Virus record (IMG/VR): IMGVR_UViG_3300037045_000362
Location: 1 to 26,713 of that record
DNA: 26,713 bases
Direction: 5' to 3' (one strand)
Origin: a virus
Lineage: Duplodnaviria; Caudoviricetes
The notes beneath the pieces were generated by a model. That model worked only from the letters and a program-made list of their open reading frames with translations, searched no databases and was not told the origin of the DNA. The translations under genes and the position numbers were made by a program. This document shows positions 1-26,713 of the stretch, one piece after another. How positions within the stretch are numbered: position 1 is the stretch's first letter; every line of letters begins with the position of its first letter.

Positions 1-459
1 ATGACTTTTGTAAATGAGTATTTACCAAAATACGACCATACGTTTTTTACACATGGGACAATTCATGACTTAGAACAGTTTCTTTCAAATGGGACAGAAG
101 AAGAGAAAAGAGAGAAAATGCTATCTCTGACATATGGACTTAAAAGTATTTTAGACCATTACACAGTTTGTGACTGTGGAAATGTTGAAAACTACACATT
201 CATATTCGGAACTTTCATTAATGAATTTAAGCTTTTAGAACAATACTTTCTTAGAAACAAAAGTCAAGAAATTGAACCAAAAGACATAAAAAACCATTTG
301 ACACTATTTCCAATAAGAATTTTAGAAAAACTTAAGACAAACAATAATAAGTGGACAACAACCTTCAGAATGAAATACAATATTTATGCAACTACTGATT
401 ACAACGAACTTGAAAATAGAAACACGAACCGCCATTCGAGAGGACTGCCCTGCCGGTAA
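1..459 (+). CDS. Hypothetical protein (cassette A cargo; may begin upstream of the window)
   Basis: 152-aa ORF, no recognised motif. The last codons (SRGLPCR*) read into the 436-483 repeat; the natural end may have been codon 433-435. Confidence 0.7.
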   Translation: MTFVNEYLPKYDHTFFTHGTIHDLEQFLSNGTEEEKREKMLSLTYGLKSILDHYTVCDCGNVENYTFIFGTFINEFKLLEQYFLRNKSQEIEPKDIKNHLTLFPIRILEKLKTNNNKWTTTFRMKYNIYATTDYNELENRNTNRHSRGLPCR

Positions 460-483
460 TTAACCGACAGTGAGAGCACCTCA
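436..483. repeat. R-flank hairpin repeat, copy 1
   Basis: TCGAGAGGACTGCCCTGCCGGTAATTAACCGACAGTGAGAGCACCTCA aligns ungapped to 8689-8736 (39/48 by hand count) and to 2689-2733. Internal stem CTGCCGGT...ACCGACAG. Confidence 0.9.
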
Positions 484-530
484 AAGAAATAAGCGAGCTA
501 CCACCGGAACTGACACCTACATAGAGAATG
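481..530 (-). pseudogene. Relic of a muF 3' end (frameshifted)
   Basis: Minus strand reads HSLCRC-[frameshift]-VPVVARLFL*, versus HPQCRCHAVPVIENLLM* of muF. The TGA occupies the same position relative to the hairpin repeat as the real muF stop. Confidence 0.75.
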
Positions 531-648
531 TCTGGTGATTAACTAATTTAGTTTCTACTTTTAAAACACAATAAAAGCTTGTATTTTAAACTAATCGATT
601 CTTATCAAAAATTCATATAACATAAAACAACTACTAACTTCAATCATC

Positions 649-942
649 ATGTTAAAAGAAACCTTTACAATTAATTACAAAGGATCAGGAATAAAAACAA
701 CCAGACTAACTGCAGATATTTTATTCTTTTTATGTATTCTTTCTGCAATTGGATTTATTATGGCAACTGCAGGTACTGAAGACCCTCTTTTCTTATTGTA
801 TGCTGCATTATCGCTCGTTGCTGGGTTTATTTTTTTTGGCAGCTTAAGAGCTCTTGCAACTATTGCTGAGAACTCATTAATCCAAAGAACCAAAGTACTC
901 ATTGAATTGAAAAATAATTTTTATATAGAAGAGAAGAAGTAA
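649..942 (+). CDS. Small membrane protein (about 2 TM helices)
   Basis: 97 aa with two hydrophobic stretches (ILFFLCILSAIGFIMA; LFLLYAALSLVAGFIFFG). Confidence 0.75.
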   Translation: MLKETFTINYKGSGIKTTRLTADILFFLCILSAIGFIMATAGTEDPLFLLYAALSLVAGFIFFGSLRALATIAENSLIQRTKVLIELKNNFYIEEKK

Positions 943-1021
943 TAAAAGATTGTATCTTAAAGTCGAACAATTCCATAAAGAAAATTTAGGAATACAATTC
1001 AAGGTAAGAATATGAATGACT

Positions 1022-1138
1022 TTACAATGAGTGTTCTTCTAATGTTACCACCGGCACCCCATGACACCTGCACTGAGGAAACCAGCCAATGAACAGGAAA
1101 GTCTTTTGGTATTTACCCTTCTTTGATTTACGGAATGG
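1022..1138 (-). pseudogene. Relic of a muF 3' end from a diverged allele
   Basis: Minus strand reads PFRKSKKGKYQKTFLFIGWFPQCRCHGVPVVTLEEHSL*. 21 of 26 residues match muF SKKGKYPKSFRFIGWHPQCRCHAVPV (1049-1126 vs 8755-8832). No start codon; in-frame TGA just upstream. Confidence 0.92.
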
Positions 1139-1237
1139 TCAATCTGGTGATTCAAAGTTACTGATTGGAAAGTCTAACTTATTTGAGATTAAATGTTATA
1201 TGAATGAATGATTATCATAAATGTAAAAACCCAAATC

Positions 1238-1858
1238 ATGAAATTTTCAAAAAAGCTGTATTTCATATTACTTGCCACATTACTATTTAGTGCATGTAAT
1301 TCCAAAACAAAAGTTGACACATCCAAGTCCGAGAGTGAAAAGGCCGCAGATGATCGTATGGATAGGATGATGACATTATACAATAATCAAAATTATGCAG
1401 CATTCATCGAAATGGCGGAAAAGGAGTTAGAATTGTCTGATAGAATGGATGGGTTTTTAGTACCACTTGCTGATGCTTACGGTCAGATAGGCAATTTTGA
1501 AAGCGCATTCTATGTAATACGAATTCAACTAAAAAGGGATTCAACGGATTACAATGCTTTGCTTGTAGTCGGTAATATGCATAATGTACAAGAAAGGTTA
1601 GACTCGGCAGAAATTTACTACAAGAGAGTTATTGAATTGAATCCGGCATATGCAAGAGCATATCTAAACCTTGCTATGGTGTATGAAAAGCAGGATAAAA
1701 AGCAGGAAGCGATTAGCAATTACTTAGAAGCAGTAACTTTATTCGATTTACACAACTTCAAAGATGAAGTCGTAAAATTTTCAAATAAGGTATTGGAACT
1801 GGATTCAACAAATCAAAAAGCAAAGTATTATTTGGAGAAAGTGAAAAGTATAAAATAA
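1238..1858 (+). CDS. TPR-repeat lipoprotein
   Basis: MKFSKK, hydrophobic core and lipobox FSAC; TPR-like repeats (YYKRVIELNPAYARAYLNLAMVY). Start moved from 1208 to the ATG at 1238 to fit the signal peptide. Confidence 0.85.
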   Translation: MKFSKKLYFILLATLLFSACNSKTKVDTSKSESEKAADDRMDRMMTLYNNQNYAAFIEMAEKELELSDRMDGFLVPLADAYGQIGNFESAFYVIRIQLKRDSTDYNALLVVGNMHNVQERLDSAEIYYKRVIELNPAYARAYLNLAMVYEKQDKKQEAISNYLEAVTLFDLHNFKDEVVKFSNKVLELDSTNQKAKYYLEKVKSIK

Positions 1859-1950
1859 AATTATTCTCTTAACAAATGGCTCACTTTGCCGGAATATTCA
1901 TGCATATCTTAAATATTTTATTTTTTACAATTAATTGAATGCTAAACGGT

Positions 1951-2034
1951 TAGAAATGAGTATTGAATTGATAAATTGAAATATAAATAATGCTTACTGA
2001 AGATACAGAAAAAGGAGTTGTAGATATAAACGTG
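1951..2034 (+). repeat. L-flank repeat (attI-like), copy 1
   Basis: 84 bp homologous to 4642-4725. Ends GAGTTGTAGATATAAACGTG, whose last G starts GTTATGC, an integron core-like heptamer (GTT intact; one mismatch to GTTRRRY). Confidence 0.8.
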
Positions 2035-2688
2035 TTATGCACAACCAAAAGACAACAGACACCAATAAAATCAAATAATATGAGCACAAGACAAGTTTAC
2101 ATCGACAGCGAAATTCATCAAGCAGTTGACATCGTTTTTAATAAGACACTTGTATTTTCAAGTACTGATTTAAAAAATTACATAAGTACAGGCACAATAC
2201 AAATTGACTATAATAAGACGGACAATAAAAAGTTTCTGCCGTTTTATGACTGCCTTTATTACCCAACTGTTACAACAGCAAAATGTGCAGACAATTTTGA
2301 CAACAACGACTGGCAAAAGTTGGAGCAAGAAATAGAGAAGGCGTTTCCAAATCAAGTGCAGACATACCATTTCTATATAGTTAGACGTTTGACAAATGAA
2401 CTTGCCTATTTTTTAAAAGTTATGTTGCAGGGTCACTTTAGTCCAATGGAAATAGACGCAACTTTTGGAGTAGAGTATTTTATTAAGCAATATGAGTTTA
2501 TCTCACAAAACATTGCAGACACTAATTTAGAAAATGAGTACGAAGAGTTTTGGTGTAAAATATTGAACGGTCTATTGACCGAACAATCAGTTAGGGTCAA
2601 ACGCTTTTTTGACGCAGAATATAGACCTATTGGACAATACGCAGTGGACACTATTGACTACTTAAAAGGACAAATTGGCTGTGCATAA
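2035..2688 (+). mobile_element. Integron-like gene cassette B lacking attC
   Basis: Starts TTATGCACAACCAA (2035-2048) and ends TTGGCTGTGCATAA (2675-2688), a 13/14 inverted repeat. The ORF stop codon lies in the inverse core, and homology to the L and R repeats stops exactly at these ends. Confidence 0.75.
2080..2688 (+). CDS. Hypothetical protein (cassette B cargo)
   Basis: The track ORF starts at 1990 inside the L repeat; the ATG at 2080 (MSTRQVYIDS) is the first start inside the cassette. No recognised family. Confidence 0.8.
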   Translation: MSTRQVYIDSEIHQAVDIVFNKTLVFSSTDLKNYISTGTIQIDYNKTDNKKFLPFYDCLYYPTVTTAKCADNFDNNDWQKLEQEIEKAFPNQVQTYHFYIVRRLTNELAYFLKVMLQGHFSPMEIDATFGVEYFIKQYEFISQNIADTNLENEYEEFWCKILNGLLTEQSVRVKRFFDAEYRPIGQYAVDTIDYLKGQIGCA

Positions 2689-2733
2689 TCGAGTGGACTG
2701 CCCTGCCGACAAACAATCGAATGGGAGGGCTAC
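2689..2733. repeat. R-flank hairpin repeat, copy 2
   Basis: TCGAGTGGACTGCCCTGCCGACAAACAATCGAATGGGAGGGC; 5' half nearly identical to copies 1 and 3, 3' half more decayed. Confidence 0.85.
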
Positions 2734-2792
2734 AATAGTTATTACAGCACATTTAATCCATGAGTAATTAAATTTAGATAACAAATCCAACA

Positions 2793-3629
2793 ATGAACTT
2801 AAGCAATCAATCACCTTGCACTTTATACCACTATACATCGCTTGATTCACTGGTACGTATCATGGAACCATTAGATGGCAAAATATGTCTACGTGCAACA
2901 CACTCTTTGTTTTTAAATGACCCAAATGAATACATATATGCAACCAACCTATTACTTGAATCAATGCGAATTTACGAGGCAAATAATAATCTATTGGAAC
3001 AAAAAAGTACTAGATTTAATTCAGACTTTATGATAAAATTACCTCAAGTTTCAGGCATGCCTTTCTTAGTTTCATTTTCAGAACATGGTGATGATTTGAA
3101 TATGTGGAGAAATTATGGTTCAAATGGTACTGGTGTGGCAATTGGCTTTGATTTGAAGAAAATTAATGAGTATTCTTGTAATCCAGCCAACACTAATACT
3201 AAACTATATAAATGTGATTATTCTAAAGAAAAAGCTCTCACAAAATTAGTGGATGAATTTTGGGCTGAAAATTACAATAATATTGATTTTAATTCTAATT
3301 CGATAGGTATCAATGATTTTAAACTTTTATTTTATCTGTTTGAGGGCTCATTTTTACTTAAACGTCAAGAATATCAGACAGAAATGGAATGGCGATTATG
3401 CAAAAATGAACTGAACAATTCAAACATAAAATTTAGAACCACTAAACAAATAATTGTGCCATTTATTGAACATTATTTCACAAAGGATTTTATTACAGAA
3501 ATCAAAATCGGCCCATGTGTTAACCATGAGTTAATTGAACATTCAATTAAAATAATGCTCAAGTCATATCAATACAATGAAGAAAAAATTTTAATTGATG
3601 TTTCACCATTAAGTTATAGAAATTTTTAA
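2793..3629 (+). CDS. DUF2971 domain protein
   Basis: Motifs LYHYTS, FLNDPNE, SFSE..DDLNMWRNYG..G.GVAIGF, K...YQTEMEWR and EIKIGP. Confidence 0.85.
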   Translation: MNLSNQSPCTLYHYTSLDSLVRIMEPLDGKICLRATHSLFLNDPNEYIYATNLLLESMRIYEANNNLLEQKSTRFNSDFMIKLPQVSGMPFLVSFSEHGDDLNMWRNYGSNGTGVAIGFDLKKINEYSCNPANTNTKLYKCDYSKEKALTKLVDEFWAENYNNIDFNSNSIGINDFKLLFYLFEGSFLLKRQEYQTEMEWRLCKNELNNSNIKFRTTKQIIVPFIEHYFTKDFITEIKIGPCVNHELIEHSIKIMLKSYQYNEEKILIDVSPLSYRNF

Positions 3630-3642
3630 AACCAAATTAAGC

Positions 3643-4527
3643 ATGAGTTTAGAAGAAGTATTTAACCCAATTCATACATTAGAGGCAATTAAAAAATATC
3701 GAAAATTAGATTTAGTAAAAACTCCATACGAAACAGTTTATAATGCGCTTGAAGAAATAATTTTTAGTTTCAACTTGATTTGTATCAATTTAGGTAAATA
3801 TCCGGTATTTAGAGTAAGGAAACATGAAAACCCTAGTTTAGTTTACACTCGAAAATCTGATTTATTAGCACCACCAGAAGAATGTGTTCACAAGATGGGC
3901 AGACTCAATAAAGTACACGAATCTATTTTTTATGCCGCATTTGACCCTGTTACAGCAATAAAAGAATCCAGAATCAAACCCGGAGATTTTTTTTCATTAT
4001 CTATATTTTGGATGAATGCAAATGAAAATGGTGAGCTCTCATCAATTAACACTTGCTTGCCAAATACCCCCTTAGGATTAGGTGTTAATGAGAATATTAC
4101 AACTTTGATAATTTCAGATTTCATGTACTCAGAATTCACAAGACATGTTAGCGAAGATACCAACTATCAATACAAAACAACGTGTGCTATTGGCGAACTT
4201 TTATTCCGTCATGAGAAAAAGGATAGTATTATATATCCATCAATGATTGATTATAATTGTAGAAATATAGCCTTTAGAAAAACCGCAATCGATAAAAGGT
4301 TATCTTTATCTGAAATTCTTGTCTGCCAATTAGAAGATTATAATGAAGAAGGAAATCCTGTCATTTACAATTCACAAAAAGGCAAAGTTAATTCAAACCG
4401 TGAAATCAACTACACTGAAACTCCATTATTTCAAAGAAATTTGACGTTAAAGAAAGAAACGTTCTTCAAACCTTACCATAAATATCAAGAGCTTATTGAT
4501 GTACTCACTAAAGTAGATGAAATTTGA
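3643..4527 (+). CDS. RES domain protein (putative NAD+-degrading effector)
   Basis: VFRVR, GRLN...SIFYAA....TAIKE, DSIIYPS and NIAF carry the R/E/S signature of the RES family. Confidence 0.85.
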   Translation: MSLEEVFNPIHTLEAIKKYRKLDLVKTPYETVYNALEEIIFSFNLICINLGKYPVFRVRKHENPSLVYTRKSDLLAPPEECVHKMGRLNKVHESIFYAAFDPVTAIKESRIKPGDFFSLSIFWMNANENGELSSINTCLPNTPLGLGVNENITTLIISDFMYSEFTRHVSEDTNYQYKTTCAIGELLFRHEKKDSIIYPSMIDYNCRNIAFRKTAIDKRLSLSEILVCQLEDYNEEGNPVIYNSQKGKVNSNREINYTETPLFQRNLTLKKETFFKPYHKYQELIDVLTKVDEI

Positions 4528-4593
4528 AAAATCTAATTAAAAAAAGTCAAAACACATATTGCTGAAAATGAAATATAATAACTCTGTGAGTTT

Positions 4594-4626
4594 TTTGGAT
4601 TTTATAAATGTATTTTTGTAGATTTG
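4594..4626 (+). promoter_or_regulatory. Bacteroidota housekeeping-type promoter upstream of the L repeat and cassette C
   Basis: TTTG (4594-4597), 21-bp spacer, TAGATTTG (4619-4626); fits the -33 TTTG / -7 TAnnTTTG consensus. Confidence 0.65.
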
Positions 4627-4641
4627 CGCCATAATGAACTA

Positions 4642-4725
4642 TAGAAATGATAATTGAAAAGGTAAAGCTGAAATATAAACAATTAGTATTTTGATGTAGG
4701 AAAAAGAGTTGTAGATATAAGCGTG
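4642..4725 (+). repeat. L-flank repeat (attI-like), copy 2
   Basis: TAGAAATGA...TGAAATATAAA...GAGTTGTAGATATAAGCGTG; the last 20 bp match copy 1 at 19/20. Confidence 0.8.
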
Positions 4726-4889
4726 CTTAGTTTAATGCTGAGAAAAAACCATGCACAAATTGAAAAACCTGAAAATTTACACCAACGCACTTTTGGCAAG
4801 TTTCCAAGACCAAAACCACTTGCTGATGCTTCAGCTTGCAAATGAGCCAAATTTTAGTCGACACACAGAGAATGAAGAAAATTAATTAT

Positions 4890-7800
4890 ATGGAACCACT
4901 TTCATCGTTTGCAATAAGTATAGCTGCTGGAATTGTACTAGACTATTACAAATTCACGCAGAGCACAGTAAAAAATGAATTAAAAAGTGCTTTTAAAAAA
5001 GCATTGAAGCTGTGGACTAAAAATGGTGATATTAGAGAGCGAAATATAAGTAGCCTTGAAAGAAAGTTTTCTGAACTATTCGCTTCCCCTGAAGACCTTG
5101 CTGACATCCAAACAACAGACCCAGATTTAGAAAGCTTTATAAAGAAATATGATGAAGCTTTATCGGGATATCATAGTGCTTACAACTACTTAAAGGAAAT
5201 CAAAGATTTAGAGCGTTTTAAAAGGGAAATAGGACTACTAGAAAGCATCCGAGACAGTTTAGATGAACTAAATGAAAAAGTTGACTATTTAAATGAAAAA
5301 TTACAAAATGTAAACTTAGGTATTGATAAAGAATGGATACGACAATTAGAAGTGTATAAAACAAATATCCAGAATTTTAAACCTAAGACAGCTCTAGGAT
5401 TAATTACAGCATTAGAAGATAGTTTTGGATTAAATGATTACAAACCAGGGAATGCAATAAACGCGACTATTGAATTTCTAAAAGGTCAATGTTATGAATT
5501 TATTGGAAACACAGATGCCATGCATAAGTGTTACATCAAAGCTTATAAATTTGATAACTCATCATTCACCTATAAAGAAAAAGCAAGTTTTGCTTATGTT
5601 ATAACGAAGAAAGTTGATGATGCTATCGACTTGGCTAAAGAGCTATTGCAATTTGATGATTTTAACGTTATTGCATGGGTTGTAACAACTTTAACATCAG
5701 AAGAAAAAGATTTGGTTAAGCTTTTATCTGTAGTGCCCGATTTAGTGAGAAAAGATTATAATTTCAAAAGAATAATATTTGTTACTACACGTTTTGACAA
5801 GCAATTTACTAATGTTTCAGAGGCTTTGGAAAAATACAATATCTTACCAGCACTCCCTGTTGATGACATTGAACCTCTTTCTTTTAATAACTTCAAAAAT
5901 AGAGTCTTTTTAATTGAAGCAATCTTCATTAAAGTTTTGAATGTTACTTTCTTTGATTTTAATACTTCATATACAGGAGATAAAAAAGTTGTATTAAAAT
6001 TTAAACCAATTCTTGAAGACTTTCTTAAGCAATTGGAAAACTCAGAAATAAAGGATAGGTTTAGTACGATTGATTTTTTAAATTCATACTTCGAATTTGT
6101 CTTAAATGAAAATGAAGACTCAGTTATTAAAATGAAGACTATTCTTGAAAATTCAAAATTTGAGAATGATTTTCATGTAATGTTCCTCACTAACTGCCTT
6201 CAATTAATTGGAAAAGAAAAAGATGCAATTGAAATAATCAATAAAAAGGAGAAGTCTAAAGAAATTAGATTACTTGAAGCACATTGTTATCTAAAACTAG
6301 GTAATATTGATAAATATGTTAACTTAACAAATGAATTACTTGCAACCATAGATTTCGTCGATATAAATACTTGCCATACACTTTTAAGTATTCAACATAT
6401 GCTTTTAATGCATAATCGTTTGAGTGATTTATTAACTGACGAGTTTATTAAAGATAAATCATTTGAACATTCTTATTTAGAGGTTCTTCTTAAGTCGTTT
6501 TCGTGCTTACCAAATGATTTAGATAAAGATTTAATAATAAGAAATGTTAAAGAAATAGAGGAAGAAGTATTAAAATCTGATACAGGTTTGATTTTTTATA
6601 TTTCTCTTATCTACTATAAGCTTTCTGAGTTTCATTTAGCAATTGAGAGTTTTAAGAAATATGTGAACGTAGATAGTCCATCAAAAGAATTATATTACTA
6701 TATATTATCTCTTGAAAAATCACAAACTAATCACAAGCATTTGTTGTTTCTCCTGGAAAAGTGGAGGAAACAATTCCCATTTCATGAAGAACTTCTTAGA
6801 ATAGAAGCTGATTTGAGGAGACAATTATCCGATTGGAAGTCATGTTCGGAAATATCACTGTACTACCTTACTCAATATCCTACCGATGAAAGCTTTTTAA
6901 CTTTAGAGTTAATTGCAATTAATGAACTTGAACAACCTAACAAAATAGAAAGAATCCAAGAAATATCTAGTTTTTTTAGAGATTTTGATTTTCAACACTA
7001 TGTTTATGCTCAAAATGTTGCTAAGATTCTTTTTCAAAATGGTTATCATGAAATATCATTAGAAATTCAATATAGAAAAGCAATTCATTCGAATAATATT
7101 GAAGCAAGAATGGATTACTTTTTTTTAGTATTGCAAATGCCAGCTGGAATTATAAAGGAAAGAGAAGAAGTTGAATTAGGTGATTATGTTTCATATTCAA
7201 TAAATGAAGAAACAAAATTTTTAGAAATATCTAGAGGTAATGATTTAGCCGAAAAATTGATTGGTCATAAAAAAGGTGATACTGTATCAATAGAAAGACC
7301 TTATACTAGACAAATTGATAATATCAATGTTAAGCGAATAATGGATAAGTATTTGTATCTGCATGATTTAATAATAGAGGAGGTACAATCAAATCCTTAT
7401 TCTGGCTTTCCAATACAATCCATCAAATTTGAAGATACAACTCCTGAAGGAATGAATAAGACCTTTGTGTCATTGTTTGGTGCTGATGGTACGTTCAGGA
7501 AAGAGGAATGTGAAAATTCATTCAAAAGATATTATGAGTATAAATTATCTTTTACGGAAATTGTAATTCAAAATTTGAATTCTGATTATATAGGAGGTTA
7601 TTTCCATTTAGTAAACTTTAGAGATGGAGTCACATTGGTGCCCATGCCAATGTACACTGATGTTAGTTTAACTGAAAAAACAGAATTAGTTCTTGATTAT
7701 AGTGCTTTACTAATCATCTTTCAAATATCACGCGAACAAAAAATAGAATATAAAAGCAAATTTATTATACCTAAAGGTATGGTTGATTTCATCAGATTTT

Positions 7801-8594
7801 CACTAAAAAAAGAAAAGTCACAACCTAAAGAGCGAATATCTGTTGATGTTTCACTTGATGGAGTTACACCTAATATCCTCACAGAAGAAACAGTTAAAAG
7901 TAACATCCTTTATTTTGAAAGCTTCTTAAAATGGATTGAGAATAATTGTCATGAAACCATAGCCGAAAGCAAACTAGATGTCACAAGAAAATTGGATGGT
8001 AAAATTGACAAAGCAATCTTCATAGACTACATGGCTGAAATTGTTTCATTAATGTTGGAATCAGAAGAAAGAATACTGGTAACCGATGATACTATGTTTT
8101 TTAAATTCTTTCCAATTCAATCTCAAAGAACAATTAGTTCAGAAGTGTACTTCAAAAGAAGGCATAATAAAGACAATGCAATAAATATTGAATTTATAAA
8201 GAATAAATATATAGGGTTTACTTTAAACGATGAATTATTATATACTGAATACCTAAAGAAATTGAAAGGTCAAGACAATTTGTATGCTAATTGCATCACT
8301 AATATTTCACTTTTACTAGTTCCTAGCAAAGAGACCGTTTTTACAGCGATTAGCTTTTTAAAAAAACTTGCTTTATTGCCTTTTATTACAGAAGAAACAT
8401 TTAGACAAGATGCTACTTTTGTATTAGTAAGTTTATTAAAAGGTCAGAAAGAGATAAAACCATTTAGAATTTCCTTATCATTAATTAATAGAAATTTTAA
8501 ACACCTTGGTAAAAAGCGAGATTTAGTACTTGAAAGTTATAATGATGCTTTGACCATCTTGGAAATTAGCCACCCGCAGAGCCATGTAAATTAA
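4890..8594 (+). CDS. Large TPR / GreA-B C-terminal-like / PIN protein, predicted defence effector (cassette C cargo)
   Basis: Long helical TPR-like region, then VELGDYVSY...LAEKLIGHKKGDTVSI (GreA/B-C-like), then LVLDYSAL...ILVTDD (PIN acidic motifs). ATG at 4890 preferred over TTG at 4836. Confidence 0.8.
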   Translation: MEPLSSFAISIAAGIVLDYYKFTQSTVKNELKSAFKKALKLWTKNGDIRERNISSLERKFSELFASPEDLADIQTTDPDLESFIKKYDEALSGYHSAYNYLKEIKDLERFKREIGLLESIRDSLDELNEKVDYLNEKLQNVNLGIDKEWIRQLEVYKTNIQNFKPKTALGLITALEDSFGLNDYKPGNAINATIEFLKGQCYEFIGNTDAMHKCYIKAYKFDNSSFTYKEKASFAYVITKKVDDAIDLAKELLQFDDFNVIAWVVTTLTSEEKDLVKLLSVVPDLVRKDYNFKRIIFVTTRFDKQFTNVSEALEKYNILPALPVDDIEPLSFNNFKNRVFLIEAIFIKVLNVTFFDFNTSYTGDKKVVLKFKPILEDFLKQLENSEIKDRFSTIDFLNSYFEFVLNENEDSVIKMKTILENSKFENDFHVMFLTNCLQLIGKEKDAIEIINKKEKSKEIRLLEAHCYLKLGNIDKYVNLTNELLATIDFVDINTCHTLLSIQHMLLMHNRLSDLLTDEFIKDKSFEHSYLEVLLKSFSCLPNDLDKDLIIRNVKEIEEEVLKSDTGLIFYISLIYYKLSEFHLAIESFKKYVNVDSPSKELYYYILSLEKSQTNHKHLLFLLEKWRKQFPFHEELLRIEADLRRQLSDWKSCSEISLYYLTQYPTDESFLTLELIAINELEQPNKIERIQEISSFFRDFDFQHYVYAQNVAKILFQNGYHEISLEIQYRKAIHSNNIEARMDYFFLVLQMPAGIIKEREEVELGDYVSYSINEETKFLEISRGNDLAEKLIGHKKGDTVSIERPYTRQIDNINVKRIMDKYLYLHDLIIEEVQSNPYSGFPIQSIKFEDTTPEGMNKTFVSLFGADGTFRKEECENSFKRYYEYKLSFTEIVIQNLNSDYIGGYFHLVNFRDGVTLVPMPMYTDVSLTEKTELVLDYSALLIIFQISREQKIEYKSKFIIPKGMVDFIRFSLKKEKSQPKERISVDVSLDGVTPNILTEETVKSNILYFESFLKWIENNCHETIAESKLDVTRKLDGKIDKAIFIDYMAEIVSLMLESEERILVTDDTMFFKFFPIQSQRTISSEVYFKRRHNKDNAINIEFIKNKYIGFTLNDELLYTEYLKKLKGQDNLYANCITNISLLLVPSKETVFTAISFLKKLALLPFITEETFRQDATFVLVSLLKGQKEIKPFRISLSLINRNFKHLGKKRDLVLESYNDALTILEISHPQSHVN

Positions 8595-8688
8595 GCTAAC
8601 GCACATATCAACCGCACTACCAAATTTGCTTAAAAAGCATGTCTATCCATCGCAGGATTGACAGATAGAATAATGCACGAAAACCCAA

Positions 8689-8736
8689 TCGAGTGAACTG
8701 ACCTGCCAGCAAATAACCGACAGGAAGAGCCCCTCA
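8689..8736. repeat. R-flank hairpin repeat, copy 3, abutting the muF stop (possible terminator or recombination site)
   Basis: Minus strand CCTGTCGG-TTATTTG-CTGGCAGG stem with two G:U pairs, directly after the muF TGA. No U-tract. Confidence 0.9.
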
Positions 8737-9633
8737 CATCAACAGATTCTCAATCACCGGTACCGCATGACACCTGCATTGCGGATGCCAACCAATGAAC
8801 CGGAAAGACTTCGGATACTTTCCCTTCTTTGACTCACACACCGGACAGTTAAAGAAGCGGTTTGACCGAATAATTTCAATTCCGGCAACAAAGTCCAACT
8901 GTTGGTACTTTTCATAGTCAGCTACACGATATGCCATGTTAATCTCCGTTCTGGTGAGGCGCATGGCATTCTTGTATGAACTTCGATAGACACCGGGGCC
9001 GGGATGGTACTTCTGGGCATTTTTGGATAGGTGGAGTATTCCATGCTTGTCTTTCACTCTCCGGAAAAGCTTATCCGGATTATGAAGATACTGGCGCAAG
9101 TCCCGACTAAGTTGTGCGGCAGATCGTCCCTCTCCTAATGCAAGATCAATTCCCAGTTCCAGTTCACCTTTGAATTGTCGGGAGTAGCTCCAGACACGGT
9201 CGGACAATCCAAGCCCGTTTATTTTCCTTTCCTGAAATGCTTTCAATGCCTCCATGTTCCTGCTTTTAAAGCGTGAAAGCTGTTCAGATGATAGTTTGGT
9301 AGCCTGAGACATAAATTCGACAATTTGGTCGTTTTTAAAGCCCGAAGCGAGCCATTCCTGCCGGGACATCTCTCGAATATGAGAATACATCTGAGCGTTT
9401 AAAAGATTGATGATTGAATCCACCTTTCGCTGAGCCTTCGGAAAGTTCTCAAAAGCAAACGGAACAGCAGGACTGGCAACAATTCCTTCCACTATCGTAG
9501 CAGCTTCATTGATGGCCGACAAGTAGAGTTTTTGCAGTTGCAGAATGTACTGTTCGATGCGTTGGTAGTGCTGACGGTCGTAACTTATGCCAATCTCCTT
9601 GACGGTGTATTGTGTTTTGTTCATATCATTCAA
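8734..9633 (-). CDS. MuF / SPP1 gp7-like minor head morphogenesis protein (short form, no toxin extension)
   Basis: Follows the portal gene; motifs LSDRVW, NAMRLTRTEINMAYR, CPVC and GWHPQCRC. Confidence 0.9.
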   Translation of the reverse strand: MNDMNKTQYTVKEIGISYDRQHYQRIEQYILQLQKLYLSAINEAATIVEGIVASPAVPFAFENFPKAQRKVDSIINLLNAQMYSHIREMSRQEWLASGFKNDQIVEFMSQATKLSSEQLSRFKSRNMEALKAFQERKINGLGLSDRVWSYSRQFKGELELGIDLALGEGRSAAQLSRDLRQYLHNPDKLFRRVKDKHGILHLSKNAQKYHPGPGVYRSSYKNAMRLTRTEINMAYRVADYEKYQQLDFVAGIEIIRSNRFFNCPVCESKKGKYPKSFRFIGWHPQCRCHAVPVIENLLM

Positions 9634-13845: not shown

Positions 13846-14676
13846 TTATTCAAACTTACTTTGGGAAATGAAATTTTGCAAGCTTTCATCTTCGCAGTTT
13901 AACGAAGTATAACGATATTTATCTAAGTAGTAACTGATGTCCACATCAACACCAAACCAGCTTGAGCCGGGCTTTTCCTTCACTTCGGGGAAATCCTTCT
14001 GAAGAAGATTAATTGTGTTAAAAGCATCCTGTTTTCGGTCGTAAACCTGACATCCTCCCTTGTTGGCATTCTGTACAACCTTTAGTCCAGAAAGACCGTA
14101 ATTAAGCGTATGAAAGCCCTTTTTCCACATGTATAGCGATGTGAGGGTATCGGTGAACTCCCGCATTTCAGGATTGATTTCATCAATGGCATCTAATCTG
14201 ATCATGGCAATCCCCTGAAGTGGTTTATTAAAGTGAGTCCACTTGTGGATATTCTTTTTTGAGTAAAGCCAGTAGCGATACTGAGTAAAGCGAATCCCTC
14301 CTATAGTAGGGAATTGTTCCATTGCCTGATAGCAGTCAGAAAGTGTTTGAATGAATGCTTCAAGCGGTTCTTCCGTTTCTATCCGGGTAAAACCATCCAC
14401 ATCATCATCAAGCTGGAAAAGGTATTTGAAACCCTTTTCTTTAGCGTATCGTCTGATGTGATTAAGTGAATACATTAATCCCTGTTTTGTGGCCGGAAGT
14501 GTTTCTACTGCATTATTTAAGTAGTACTTGTAAAGAAACCGTTCTGTCGGTTCAACAAACACTTTTACGTTGGGCAGGTCTTTTGCCCAAGACATGGTTT
14601 TCTTTGTAATGTATTCCGGACGTGATAGTGAGGGAATACCTATGAATGTATCTTTGAAAAATGGTTGCATAATCAA
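13846..14676 (-). CDS. GREB1/TAGT-like GT-A glycosyltransferase 2
   Basis: IGIPSLSRP, YLFQLDDDV (DxD) and C-terminal NKGGC. Confidence 0.75.
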   Translation of the reverse strand: MIMQPFFKDTFIGIPSLSRPEYITKKTMSWAKDLPNVKVFVEPTERFLYKYYLNNAVETLPATKQGLMYSLNHIRRYAKEKGFKYLFQLDDDVDGFTRIETEEPLEAFIQTLSDCYQAMEQFPTIGGIRFTQYRYWLYSKKNIHKWTHFNKPLQGIAMIRLDAIDEINPEMREFTDTLTSLYMWKKGFHTLNYGLSGLKVVQNANKGGCQVYDRKQDAFNTINLLQKDFPEVKEKPGSSWFGVDVDISYYLDKYRYTSLNCEDESLQNFISQSKFE

Positions 14677-15419
14677 TAAGGGAATTTAAGTGAACGTTCT
14701 CCGATGTTTACATTTTGCTTTAGGGCAGTGGGTTCCTTGTACTGGATTGCATCTCCGAACTTTTGCCTTAAATATAGGGTATTTCTAATCATACTCTCAC
14801 GGGTGCGATAGTCATTACATCCACCTAAAGCAGTGAAGTTTCCATCAGTGACAAAGCTATACCGATTATCGATTAAGCAATATCGGTGCATGTAGATTGT
14901 CAGGCAGGAAATGTAATGGTCTTCACCTTCTGAAAGATTCAGGTCATAAGCCAGTCCATGTCCCCTGATGAAACCACAGAATGAGGCATTCATGTAACCA
15001 GTGTGAACAATGGGAGAAAAAGCATTGTATTCCAGTGGGTTTCTAATCTTTGAGAATGAGAAAACCCTTGCATTGATTTGCTTTGAGATGTATGCAGTTT
15101 GATTGATGATTTCCAGTATTGTTTCCGGGTCATCGATAGTTACGGAACCTTCACCAAAGAAGTAGTTCTTTCTTACCGATACCACATCATCATCAATCAT
15201 AAACACATCTTCATTGGCCCAGGTATCGAGAATCCATTGCCGGGTATGAGTAATACCACGTATATGCGAAGGAACACCCACAACTTCCGTTTTAGGATTG
15301 TGAGCTTTGTAATCTTCCACTTCACCTTGAGGAACTATAAGCGTGAGAGATGGAATAAGCCGGGTTGTACGGACATTATCAGCCCTCCCTTTTGATGGGC
15401 ACACTATTTTAATTGACAT
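14673..15419 (-). CDS. GREB1/TAGT-like GT-A glycosyltransferase 1
   Basis: IVCPSKGRA, GITHTRQWILD, VFMIDDD, GEDH and GGC. Confidence 0.85.
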   Translation of the reverse strand: MSIKIVCPSKGRADNVRTTRLIPSLTLIVPQGEVEDYKAHNPKTEVVGVPSHIRGITHTRQWILDTWANEDVFMIDDDVVSVRKNYFFGEGSVTIDDPETILEIINQTAYISKQINARVFSFSKIRNPLEYNAFSPIVHTGYMNASFCGFIRGHGLAYDLNLSEGEDHYISCLTIYMHRYCLIDNRYSFVTDGNFTALGGCNDYRTRESMIRNTLYLRQKFGDAIQYKEPTALKQNVNIGERSLKFPY

Positions 15420-17763: not shown

Positions 17764-18511
17764 GTTCTACTTTGAGTTTAAAGATTCCGGCCCAGTTGTT
17801 AGCCATTGATTGCTTGCATATTTGTCTTGCTACATCTGGACTACCCTCTGATAGCTCGATGAGCTTTTCAGCAAACGCCTGTACTGACTTATCAGACTTA
17901 TAGGTCTCTTTCCGGCTTTTCTTGTAGGCCAGCCATTCTGCTATGATAGGTTGGAAGTTGGATTCAATACCTTTCAGGTCGAAATCAAGCTGTGGCCGTT
18001 TGGATTTTGGTTTGGATTGTTGGATTACTTCATCCTGCACCAAAGAGTTATTGCTGACATTTACCGAATTAATGTTGACATTAATTACGTTGTTGCGTAC
18101 ATTAATCCAGTTTATGTTAGCATTAAATTGGTTTGTGTCAACAATTACAAAACGCCTGTCTGCTATGATTGATTTCCTTCGCTCACAGGCTGAGAAATAT
18201 CGCTTCTGGATTCCTGAACTGGTTAGTATCCCAAATTTGTCGAATAACTCCCTGTCAAAAATGGAATACCTTAAACAGTCTTCGATTATGTTTTGTATTA
18301 TGTCCATATCCACGTTTACATTCTTTTTGAAAATGAGTAGCATATCTTCATTCCAATCGGTGTAATATCCTGAACGGTAAATGAGTTGATACAACTTCAC
18401 CACAATTGCAAAACCTATCAAGCCATGCTTTGCCTCCAACAGCTCAAACTTTGAGTCCGGGGTGACATCCAAAGCGAAATAATCTAATCCCGTTTTGTTA
18501 GGTCGTGCCAT
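17681..18511 (-). CDS. Phage replication initiator (Lin1244/Lin1753, DUF4373-like)
   Basis: MARPNKTGLDYF, GILTSSGIQKRY, an internal heptad repeat and C-terminal QSMANNWAGIF. Confidence 0.85.
   Translation of the reverse strand: MARPNKTGLDYFALDVTPDSKFELLEAKHGLIGFAIVVKLYQLIYRSGYYTDWNEDMLLIFKKNVNVDMDIIQNIIEDCLRYSIFDRELFDKFGILTSSGIQKRYFSACERRKSIIADRRFVIVDTNQFNANINWINVRNNVINVNINSVNVSNNSLVQDEVIQQSKPKSKRPQLDFDLKGIESNFQPIIAEWLAYKKSRKETYKSDKSVQAFAEKLIELSEGSPDVARQICKQSMANNWAGIFKLKVEHESNRRLNTETRKQRIAEEAARISGTC
18041..18145 (-). repeat. Five 21-bp iteron-like repeats within the initiator gene
   Basis: Minus-strand units ATTGTTGACACAAACCAATTT / AATGCTAACATAAACTGGATT / AATGTACGCAACAACGTAATT / AATGTCAACATTAATTCGGTA / AATGTCAGCAATAACTCTTTG. 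Confidence 0.85.
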
Positions 18512-20257: not shown

Positions 20258-21148
20258 TTAATATCCCGGCCCATCATCAGTATTTTCTTGCTTTTCTGGT
20301 TTTTCTTCCTCGAAAGGTACATCTTCCACATTGATATGTTTTGGTCGAATCTCCGCCAGTGCATTATCACGGGACTCCTGAGCTTCATCTGAATCCATCG
20401 AAAATGCATTTTGCATTTCAACCGAGAGATAACCCCATTTCCCAAGTAAGTTTCGCATGCAGGTTTTAAGTGCCATTTCAGTAAAGTTACCCATCCACCC
20501 TACCTTATCGGTGCTTTGAGCGGAATTGGCTAAAATTTTCAGACTTTCGACAGTTACTTCCTTAGAGTTTTTGAGGCCGGGGGAGTATTGTTTGGCGTGT
20601 TTTGCCATCTTTTCAACCGACATATAGAGTGTTTTGGAATATCCGTTGAGAAGCTCGAAATAGGCGAAATATCCTTCGATTTTATCGGACTTTTTCTCTC
20701 CATCTAAAGCGATTTCACCAGTAAGCTTGCTAACCCTGCGAAGTTCTCCTTCGTATACCACATCTGCGTTCAATGTTCGGTACTCTCCGGTTCGCATCGC
20801 CATTTGAATGTAACCCCTGTAACCGGGTATGAAAGTAGGCACCGGGACTTTTTGCCATGATCCGTCGGGCATTCTCACCGAATTGTTATACACTACGATG
20901 TAAGCAAAACCGAGCGCTTTGGTTAGTGGAAGTTTCAAGACTGCTGCTTTTAATGCCTGAGCAACTACCAAATTCGGGTCGCATGATTGTAGGGAAGTAT
21001 CACCTGTGTAAAGGTCGATGATACTGGCAATAAAGCTGTTACTATTGGTACCAAGAGCATTCTTAAACTGCTCCTGCACGCTCTCACTACTTAATGTTCT
21101 CTTCAGAACGTCTACTCTTCTGATGGGAGTTTTTTTTGTGTTATCCAT
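20258..21148 (-). CDS. recT: RecT-family single-strand annealing protein
   Basis: LGFAYIVVY, GYRGYIQMAMRTGEY, VVYEGE, GYFAYFEL and MALKT. Confidence 0.92.
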   Translation of the reverse strand: MDNTKKTPIRRVDVLKRTLSSESVQEQFKNALGTNSNSFIASIIDLYTGDTSLQSCDPNLVVAQALKAAVLKLPLTKALGFAYIVVYNNSVRMPDGSWQKVPVPTFIPGYRGYIQMAMRTGEYRTLNADVVYEGELRRVSKLTGEIALDGEKKSDKIEGYFAYFELLNGYSKTLYMSVEKMAKHAKQYSPGLKNSKEVTVESLKILANSAQSTDKVGWMGNFTEMALKTCMRNLLGKWGYLSVEMQNAFSMDSDEAQESRDNALAEIRPKHINVEDVPFEEEKPEKQENTDDGPGY

Positions 21149-24580: not shown

Positions 24581-24646
24581 AAATAATATCTACATATATT
24601 ACAAATATGGCATACAAATATATTTGAAATATATTAATACAATTAT

Positions 24647-24878
24647 TATGTCAACATAAACGTAGTTAATGTCAACATTAATCCGGTTAATGTACTACAG
24701 AAAAGTCCAAAGTAAATATTATATATATACATATATAATACTCTTATATATATAAAGAAAACATAACTCGATTAATGCATACATTAACTGAATTAATGTT
24801 GACATAAACCCGGGTTATTGCAGAAAAAACCGAGTTAATGAAAACACAAACTCAGTAAATGTCAACACAAACAAAATT
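24647..24878 (+). repeat. Non-coding 21-bp iteron arrays (3 + 5 units) flanking an AT-rich element; candidate origin
   Basis: Units such as AATGTCAACATTAATCCGGTT at 24647-24709 and 24774-24878, with a TA-rich spacer between. Same consensus as the repeats at 18041-18145. Confidence 0.85.
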
Positions 24879-24907
24879 GAAGCAAAAAGTACGATAAATT
24901 GATTTAT

Positions 24908-25393: not shown

Positions 25394-26713
25394 TTACAAA
25401 AGTAAGTTCACCAGTTCTGATTTAATATCATCGTCTATTTCCCGATAACGGGCAAAGGCTTTACTACCCTCCCGATGTCCAGACAAACTACCAACTAAAT
25501 TTGGGTCTTTAACTTGTTTATATAAATTTCCGATGAAAGTTCTACGAGCCAAATGCGAGGATGCTATTTCATTTAATGGAACCTGAATTGGTTCACGAGT
25601 CAGCTGGCATAAAATTGTAACTGGTCGGGTTATCTCCACAAGAGTAAAAATTTCCTTAATAGCATCATTGTACTTTTGCGATGAAATAAATGGCAAAAGC
25701 TGCTCCGTGCTTTCATTGGTATATCTGGCGATAATTTCTTTGGCTATACCATTTAAGGGCACCCTTACTGTAACCGGATCTCCATCTTTGGTTTTACGGG
25801 CTATGTATTCAACCGCATCATTAATGATATTCGATTTTTTAAGCAAAATCAAGTCCCCGACCCGGCATCCAATCAGGCATTGGAACACAAAAATATCCCG
25901 TTGAACAGCCAGGTGTTTTTTTTCACCGAAATCATGTTTATAAATCTTATTTCTTTCCACTATGGAAATATAATAAGGAGTACCATAAACAGATTCCGTT
26001 AGTTGATATTTCTTGAAAGGATTAACTGCTATCAAGTCGTTATCGACACACCAGCTTAGGAATGTTCTCAAAATTTTTAATCTGTCGTGAATTGTATTTA
26101 GGCCTCTTTGCTCGGGAATTCTGGACTCCGGCTGCTGGATAAGAATATCCGGATACATTTCAATATACGTGTATTCGTGCTTTATGTAATCTTCGACCTC
26201 ACTTAGAAAAGCTTTATTAAAACAGGAGAAAGTCAACTTGAATTCCGGAAATGATTTACGCTTAAAAAGCTCTAATCTTTTCAATAACCTATAAACAACC
26301 TTGTTCATTCGAAATCTCATATTTGACAATTTCCTTGTTTTCAAAAATTCATCGTAGGCATCAAAAAAATCACTTCCCTGATCTACGTACTTTTCGGGAT
26401 ACTTAAACTGATCTACACATATCGCCAACCAATCCTTACTCAACTGTGATTTATCAGATTGCTCGTAAGATTCGATAATGTACTTTTTTAAATTAGAAAG
26501 CGTTTCATCCAATTCAAGAAGTTCTTTTCGTTCCTGTGTATCAATCTTTGGAATCGACAAAGTTTTCTTGTGAGGTAACCACCGATTCACTGGAACGAAA
26601 TAACCCGACTTAACACGAAAACGGTTTTCACGACTAGCAGAAAAACGAATGTAAATTTCAGACTTACCAATTTTATTTACTGTTTTGGAAATAGAATATG
26701 TGAGTGTTGCCAT
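25394..26713 (-). CDS. int: Tyrosine recombinase / phage integrase
   Basis: GCRVGD (R), RKTK (K), HLARRTF (HxxR), LSGH and ARY (Y); N-terminal arm-binding-like and SAM-like regions. Confidence 0.95.
   Translation of the reverse strand: MATLTYSISKTVNKIGKSEIYIRFSASRENRFRVKSGYFVPVNRWLPHKKTLSIPKIDTQERKELLELDETLSNLKKYIIESYEQSDKSQLSKDWLAICVDQFKYPEKYVDQGSDFFDAYDEFLKTRKLSNMRFRMNKVVYRLLKRLELFKRKSFPEFKLTFSCFNKAFLSEVEDYIKHEYTYIEMYPDILIQQPESRIPEQRGLNTIHDRLKILRTFLSWCVDNDLIAVNPFKKYQLTESVYGTPYYISIVERNKIYKHDFGEKKHLAVQRDIFVFQCLIGCRVGDLILLKKSNIINDAVEYIARKTKDGDPVTVRVPLNGIAKEIIARYTNESTEQLLPFISSQKYNDAIKEIFTLVEITRPVTILCQLTREPIQVPLNEIASSHLARRTFIGNLYKQVKDPNLVGSLSGHREGSKAFARYREIDDDIKSELVNLLL

Follow-up and report, generated by a model that had tools for sequence, protein, structure and literature searches.

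The window analysed here is the full length of a 26.7-kb virus record. Read from its right end, the minus strand carries an integrase, a repressor region, RecT, replication genes, a terminase, a portal and a MuF-type head gene, in this order. The left part of the window, positions 1-8733, is AT-rich (25-37% GC versus about 40%), and its genes lie on the plus strand. Close relatives, 94-96% identical in MuF, were found at 5 of 31 viral, 6 of 31 metagenome and 3 of 10 genome loci, numbers in which many entries are one element seen twice and many loci are near-duplicates from few samples; the three genome loci carry the title Paludibacter sp. MAGs. The predicted features of the window are as follows:

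1-434, plus strand: 3' part of cassette A; the product gave no family match in profile searches, and its frame enters the intron tip and stops at 459
435-483, minus strand: copy A of R, a group IIC intron 3' tip (domain VI) with the last base mutated and the hairpin kept
481-522, minus strand: duplicated MuF 3' end in a decayed state, joined to the tip (self-comparison)
649-942, plus strand: moron-like gene for a 97-aa protein; neither cassette ends nor family matches were found
1046-1131, minus strand: second duplicate of the MuF 3' end, without intron tip (82% to 8755-8832, E 2e-16)
1208-1858, plus strand: moron-like gene for a TPR protein (Pfam TPR_1, E 7e-12)
1897-2034, plus strand: copy B of L, an attI-like segment whose last base is the G of G/TT
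2035-2687, plus strand: cassette B without attC, coding for a 202-aa protein (2080-2688)
2688-2730, minus strand: copy B of R, a more decayed intron 3' tip (37/50)
2793-3629, plus strand: DUF2971 gene with a weak PADLOC PDC-S31 match
3643-4527, plus strand: RES-domain gene (Pfam RES, E 3.5e-5, above the cut-off)
4571-4725 (start approximate), plus strand: copy C of L, comprising a promoter motif (4594-4626) and the attI-like segment, placed by alignment
4726-8687, plus strand: cassette C without attC, with cassette-type leader and trailer
8688-8741, minus strand: copy C of R, an intron 3' tip (45/50) that overlaps the MuF gene and supplies its stop codon (8734-8736)
8734-9624, minus strand: shortened MuF-type head morphogenesis gene (PHROG head morphogenesis, E 1e-64), the right border of the cargo slot
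20258-21148, minus strand: RecT recombinase (Pfam RecT, E 3e-32), a candidate for short-repeat recombination

RecT proteins are active on short homologies. The integrase (25394-26713) is only 56-63% identical to those of the relatives L063-L065, where the neighbouring DNA differs as well. MuF is 94-96% identical in these loci but the integrases are not, a pattern that, judged by these identities, is integrase swapping. Two genes for TET-associated glycosyltransferases (TAGT) and an adjoining ParB-like gene at 13846-15419 are likely to form a DNA-modification module. Repeats of about 21-30 nt resembling GTTAATGTCAACAT lie inside the replication-initiator gene (18048-18143) and, inverted, near the repressor region (24646-24888).

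The original prediction described the left part of the window as an array of integron-type cassettes deprived of attC and framed by two repeats, L and R. Self-comparison recovered the three copies of R and the two of L at the predicted places, beyond shuffle chance; L turned out to be longer than the 84 bp proposed (1897-2034 and about 4571-4725). Cassette A keeps an inverse-core remnant at its right end. As predicted, cassette B is complete, starting with G/TTATGCAC (the slash marks the junction) and ending in a matching inverse core that carries the stop codon, and cassette C is more degenerate, with the start G/CT. The reported loss of attC after cassettes A, B and C was likewise borne out, and the window holds no full attC. 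For the genes between the units (649-942, 1208-1858, 2793-3629 and 3643-4527), no cassette ends were found. Absent from the prediction were the MuF-end duplicates at 481-522 and 1046-1131, as was the fact that R copy C is fused to MuF at its stop codon. The region 410-576 is 81% identical to a similar junction in the genome G008.

With regard to the cargo, the cassette B protein has four homologue clusters at 46-87% identity and no match in plasmids or viral contigs, and the stretch 1900-2760 had no match in the phage collection. Cassette C probably encodes, at 4890-8594, a TPR-GreAB-C-PIN-like protein of about 1235 aa, in which PF20698 is weak; the family is present in homologues at 43-51% identity. 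TPR-GreAB-C-PIN proteins have an antiviral role. The leader of cassette C resembles that of a host cassette, and its trailer (8578-8687) is a repeat also occurring behind unrelated sequences in several metagenomes. Contigs from the runs X2, X5 and X8 cover the cassette C gene and none covers MuF, where contigs speak for presence and not for absence. The proteins of cassettes A and C were each found in 0 of 401 Bacteroidota genomes, in a search that had no positive control and is not evidence of absence. A defence function of the cargo is only suggested, by the likeness of the cassette C protein, by the weak PADLOC candidate match of the DUF2971 gene and by the RES gene, RES proteins being mentioned in a defence context in the part of the literature available.

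The copies of the L family (n = 10) align up to one G, after which nine continue with TT and copy C of the window with CT. One and the same L allele, shared by the sister prophage L034 and by L126, is followed by different first cassettes. At the loci L106, L123, L124, L125 and L126, the first cassette is separated by L from a gene for a 148-aa protein that precedes the scaffold-like and major head genes. The far part of L holds a Bacteroidota-type promoter motif facing the cargo; in the window it was seen in copy C, at 4594-4626, where it matches the Bacteroidota promoter consensus, and was not found in copy B. From these alignments, L is an attI-like entry site with a putative G/TT crossover and a variable first cassette, in agreement with the fixed landing site that had been predicted. 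A reading of L as the right arm of an attC was dropped, as no left arm was found upstream of any copy.

The last ~170 nt of L align, up to the same G, with the DNA behind the gene for a 555-aa tyrosine recombinase in the Paludibacter genome G006 (locus L111). The alignment scores of 39-74 were reached by 0-2 of 1000 doublet shuffles (0/1000 for copy B and 1/1000 for copy C). Alignments of L to 28 further regions beside recombinases gave no more than 24-44, which speaks against the slot proposed below. Among 301 genomes of the family, full matches to L occurred only in G008, which has a chromosomal L, and four other matches had a length of 21-34 nt. A phage with a scaffold protein 86% identical (L131) has the promoter part of L and lacks the G/TT part, which favours capture of L by the phage. 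L111 is a 2.7-kb contig and its genome also carries the prophage; thus the alignment gives no direction of transfer, a point that likewise counts against the slot. Altogether, the phage is likely to have captured L from a host, as far as such alignments can tell.

Related recombinases, non-IntI tyrosine recombinases of 350-600 aa, were found in 38 of the 301 family genomes (L164-L193, L111, L112, L113 and L121). Many are followed after 100-260 nt by a G/TT cassette start, as judged by a loose, uncontrolled pattern that matched 20 of 28 regions, and the cassette site lies downstream of the recombinase gene in most cases read. None of five genomes passed the TIGR02249 cut-off, and the matches were split around profile positions 180-240, the middle part of the profile and presumably the IntI-specific insertion. 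These features indicate that the non-IntI recombinase family and its G/TT cassette starts are an integron-like platform. A profile search of the window found no IntI, so that the recombinase must act in trans, one of the two options in the original prediction. G008 gave no recombinase match at E 1e-70, which also counts against the slot.

In the genome G007, a host recombinase adjoins the lincosamide-transferase cassette that is also present in L034. This supports the claim that the cargo consists of integron-type cassettes from a host pool, and for one cassette of L034 a homologue with attC was found. The same lincosamide nucleotidyltransferase cassette occupies 7931-8701 in the prophage slot of L034 and 70-840 beside the chromosomal recombinase of L121. 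An IS91-like pair of a tyrosine recombinase and a Y2 transposase has entered L at G/TT in the manner of a cassette (L106, 7846-9871, on contig C14 of G008). The pair is also present in L123, L124, L126 and L060, its far end being followed by other cassettes at G/TT, and the intron described next also homes into IS91-like elements (L084).

R had been taken for a hairpin made by the phage. We find instead that it ends, on the minus strand, with CACTCGAT and is identical or near-identical to the ends of intact introns. The last 50 nt of an intact intron matched the window in 45/50 positions at 8688, 44/50 at 435 and 37/50 at 2688, compared to 24 at the next best place on the plus strand, 30 on the minus strand and 28 for the best of 200 base shuffles. 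In L034, the same end closes a complete 1.94-kb element that starts with GTGCG and ends with CGAT. The RT-maturase of this element has 440 aa and only the RVT_1 and GIIM domains (Pfam), without endonuclease domain; its best solved structure is the GsI-IIC RT (E 7e-102). Rfam gave group II D1-D4 matches of 112 and 38 bits for the L034 intron and did not call D5/D6; the CGC triad of domain V was seen. In the window, Rfam reported no group II match, tips included, because the tips are too short. The L034 intron sits inside a long inverted-repeat, attC-like site straight after a cassette. All five distinct intron 5' ends read come after an inverted-repeat site ending in TGT, and 34 of 35 distinct rows continue behind the 3' end with TA or TG (36 distinct rows, one dropped as a chance match). 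These matches identify R as domain VI, the final ~50 nt, of an intron of group IIC that homes into cassette attC.

Published IIC-attC introns insert into the bottom strand of attC, opposite to the genes (available part of PMC3001079), and target R'' at TTGT/T (available part of PMC7923331). Since R is the end of such an intron, this target position implies that the cassette was cut at GT/T by intron insertion. The right junction is thus, by comparison with the intact introns, the intron insertion point and not a recombinase crossover, from which, for IntI, it differs by one base. On the top strand the junction reads RYYYA/ATCGAG, where the second A is the complement of the last base of the intron, as the intact introns show. 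The sharpness of the junctions had been predicted correctly, and the right cut at AA/T has to be moved one base to the left.

These results bear on the explanation originally given, which has a single, as yet unnamed recombinase cutting both cassette ends at the equivalent of the crossover and attaching the cassettes to L and R sites made by the phage. Both junctions are sharp, the cargo varies, and the window taken alone allows a right junction at AA/T. But R is the end of an intron known in intact form, the intact introns set the cut at GT/T, which is a known intron target position, and L resembles host DNA and not phage-only DNA. We consider this explanation already largely refuted and hardly credible.

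Among 251 genomes of the family, 9 had such introns, in full length, with internal deletions or with a truncated 5' end. Among plasmid relatives, the nearest to the RT are from Bacteroidota (62-70%), followed by Firmicutes (41-47%), and no proteobacterial record was among the best 25 matches; this ranking hints at a lineage separate from the proteobacterial integron introns. The 5'-truncated introns also occur in host arrays where no phage DNA was seen, so the tips alone need no phage mechanism, which weakens the case for the slot. In an unrelated 98-kb viral record (L162, 3001-3021), a gene is followed by a shorter version of this intron's tip, and MuF does not occur in the vicinity. At L082, L105 (12796-12902) and L107 (7148-7254), a hybrid of a tip and an L end, of about 115 bp, stands between cassettes in place of attC; its register is constant, the cassettes on either side differ, and the unit is also present in run X1. 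A decayed hybrid of this kind before the DUF2971 gene was considered for the window and rejected (p 0.37-0.78).

At the right border, the MuF protein of the window stops 11 residues after its last CxC motif. In the close clade, the frame stops 9-12 residues after this motif in 26 of 26 rows and there is no C-terminal toxin domain, whereas distant MuF proteins run on for a further 64-623 residues in 51 of 53 rows, the other two reaching contig ends. The short MuF is conserved, with an identity of 0.97 for the protein and 0.74 at four-fold sites (21 pairs, 7 genes). The 11 distinct junctions between MuF and tip share one register, and this single register suggests one old fusion of MuF at the domain V/VI boundary, in which the TGA of the intron would have given the stop codon. 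A diversity-generating (DGR) origin of the variable MuF tail was dropped, as the changes go beyond template adenines and the window holds neither template repeat nor RT.

Pairwise identity across the junctions rises from 0.58-0.71, at a distance of 70 to 30 columns from the end, to 0.92-0.93 over the final 20 columns, compared to 0.74 at the MuF four-fold sites. Four of the 11 fusions exactly match one of two different intact introns over 35-50 nt: L032 (50 nt) and L035 (36 nt) match the intron of L084, and L037 (41 nt) and L060 (35 nt) that of L061. L060 and L072 have the tail in common and differ in loop and cassette, one junction allele thus preceding different cassettes. This pattern suggests that the tip has repeatedly been refreshed from intact introns and that repeated tip-by-tip recombination may strip attC and swap the cargo. 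Part of the identity pattern could also stem from selection acting on the hairpin or from a recent common ancestor.

In a more passive account, cassettes entered at a captured attI, introns invaded their attC and decayed, and one old deletion fused MuF to a tip that has had no role since, later changes of cargo being due to ordinary phage-phage recombination. Truncated IIC-attC introns are on record in arrays (PMC7923331, available part) and occur in the host genomes above, the constant register fits a single fusion, and the tips of the window are indeed decayed, with exact 3' matches to an intact intron of 8 nt for copy C and 0 nt for copy A. Together with the core G/CT of cassette C, this decay makes the allele of the window look old, which counts against an active slot. 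The account is at odds with the occurrence of the same junction allele before different cassettes, with exact matches of tips to different intact introns and with an identity that climbs toward the cassette above the neutral level, and we regard it as unlikely.

The duplicates of the MuF end have fixed 3' ends and ragged 5' ends, at lengths of about 40-350 bp, and add non-cassette genes to the array. Both the fixed and ragged ends and the duplicate beside host-like genes in G006 would fit a capture driven by the intron RT, which would copy MuF-tip transcripts or switch template and deliver 5'-truncated MuF-tip cDNA to attC. We rate this as very improbable, given that no attC remainder was found upstream of any MuF duplicate read, that some duplicates lack the tip (1046-1131 of the window and L037) and that the tip lacks the catalytic domain V.

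The order in L034 is L, cassette, full intron, attC, cassette, tip and MuF duplicate. Inverted repeats resembling attC were seen in L061 and L112 in addition to L034. The cargo adjoining MuF varies among relatives and includes AbiTii, MazEF-like, DprA and nucleotidyltransferase genes, with a KAP NTPase further in. G008 has both halves of the prophage, one with MuF and one with the capsid genes, on two contigs that share a 15-bp tRNA-Lys end and a 27-bp repeat at their outer ends. In this prophage, the cargo from L to the MuF end amounts to at least about 26 kb and consists for the most part of metal-resistance genes and the IS91-like element that entered at G/TT (sizes are sums of coordinates). 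Large clusters of genes for heavy-metal resistance occupy the slot in L032/L074 (14597-20562), L035 (11325-19677), L072 (10457-15144) and L106 (10454-18509). With its metal cluster, the G008 prophage has about 78 kb or more and is possibly too long to be packaged. No single contig reaches across the slot between the capsid genes and MuF, and the window is truncated on its left, which again counts against the slot.

Several viral records end with the stop codon of MuF, and in L032, L035 and L072 metal-resistance genes of a host-like kind come next, as would be expected if the MuF end were the prophage attachment site and the array host DNA. But G008 has its att repeats next to the integrase and at tRNA-Lys, on the far side of L the capsid and tail genes set in again, and five capsid-half records have no portal gene. 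On account of the G008 repeats and the capsid-half records, we rejected a permuted prophage whose att would be the MuF end, and attach next to no probability to this explanation.

The reading we favour, and hold to be fairly probable, is a variable slot in Paludibacter-type prophages, where cassettes stand between an attI-like L, likely captured from the host, and the tip of an attC-homing IIC intron on a shortened MuF; the cassettes probably entered through a host recombinase and probably lost their attC when intron tips recombined. L ends at G/TT and accepts different cassettes, as seen in its anatomy, and a host integron-like tyrosine recombinase would work on it in trans. An intron would then home into the attC of the new cassette, an intermediate of the kind seen in L034. 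Recombination between domain VI of this intron and the resident ~50-nt tip, present as directly repeated copies, would delete the intron body, the attC and the cassettes in between and leave L, cassette and tip; the catalyst may well be the phage RecT or the host RecA. With attC lost, excision by the integrase would be blocked. Misaligned recombination of phage alleles at MuF ends and L copies would finally stack such units with non-cassette genes into the array of the window.

A bolder version, which we put forward tentatively and think somewhat less probable than its opposite, holds that the phage lineage has domesticated two elements into a working cassette exchanger, the 50-nt intron tip at the MuF stop and the captured attI, on which a non-IntI recombinase of Bacteroidota would act in trans. 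The tip would serve as a recombination handle, by which attC and old cargo are removed whenever a host intron homes into a new cassette. If so, the phage would sample the host pool of defence, toxin-antitoxin and resistance genes, stay packageable and be invisible to attC-based integron scans.

If the slot is as proposed, it would be a route for Bacteroidota cassettes (defence-like, toxin-antitoxin and lincosamide-transferase) into phages, on which they lose the attC that detection tools need. L, the attC-like sites and the candidate non-IntI recombinase would then be a compact natural substrate pair for integron-like activity in Bacteroidota, a group for which the available text of the IntegronFinder 2.0 paper names one complete integron only (PMC9024848). 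A role of IIC-attC introns in cassette reshaping via homologous recombination has been proposed (cited in PMC7923331, available part) and would become testable in the reverse direction. In searches of open-access papers, we found none on a non-IntI cassette platform of Bacteroidota and none in which an intron tip delimits the cargo slot of a prophage; further phage CALINs are listed in the supplement of PMC9892861.

The intron from which R derives resembles the group IIC-attC introns of the S.ma.I2 type (PMC3001079 and PMC7923331, as far as available) in its use of the attC bottom strand at R'' (TGT/T), opposite to the cassette gene, in an RT without endonuclease domain and in truncated copies within arrays (the last after PMC7923331). 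It differs in its Bacteroidota lineage and in that the window keeps domain VI only, fused to a phage gene. As in phage integrons and CALINs (PMC9892861), cassette arrays and an attI-like site reside in a phage that has no integron integrase of its own. In the available part of that source, the arrays keep attC and are found through it, and the word 'intron' occurs 0 times; the present array has lost attC, is bordered by an intron tip and has a candidate recombinase other than IntI. A CALIN is defined by at least two attC without intI, whereas the window has no full attC and L034 one attC split by the intron. Sedentary integrons (IntI, Pc, attI, attC) share the promoter motif, the fixed G/TT entry, cassettes with core and inverse core and, in the relatives, long inverted-repeat sites between cassettes; in contrast, the host recombinases described here are below the TIGR02249 cut-off, the site is mostly downstream of them and a recombinase is missing from the phage copy. 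In MuF polymorphic toxin loci, according to the accessible part of PMC5576092, the portal gene is likewise followed by a MuF-type gene whose 3' end varies, unlike the present locus with its short MuF, duplicates of the conserved end, cargo on the opposite strand and no toxin-immunity pairs. Phage-borne integrons and CALINs, truncated IIC-attC introns and MuF variation are known, and what appears to be new is their arrangement in a prophage slot.
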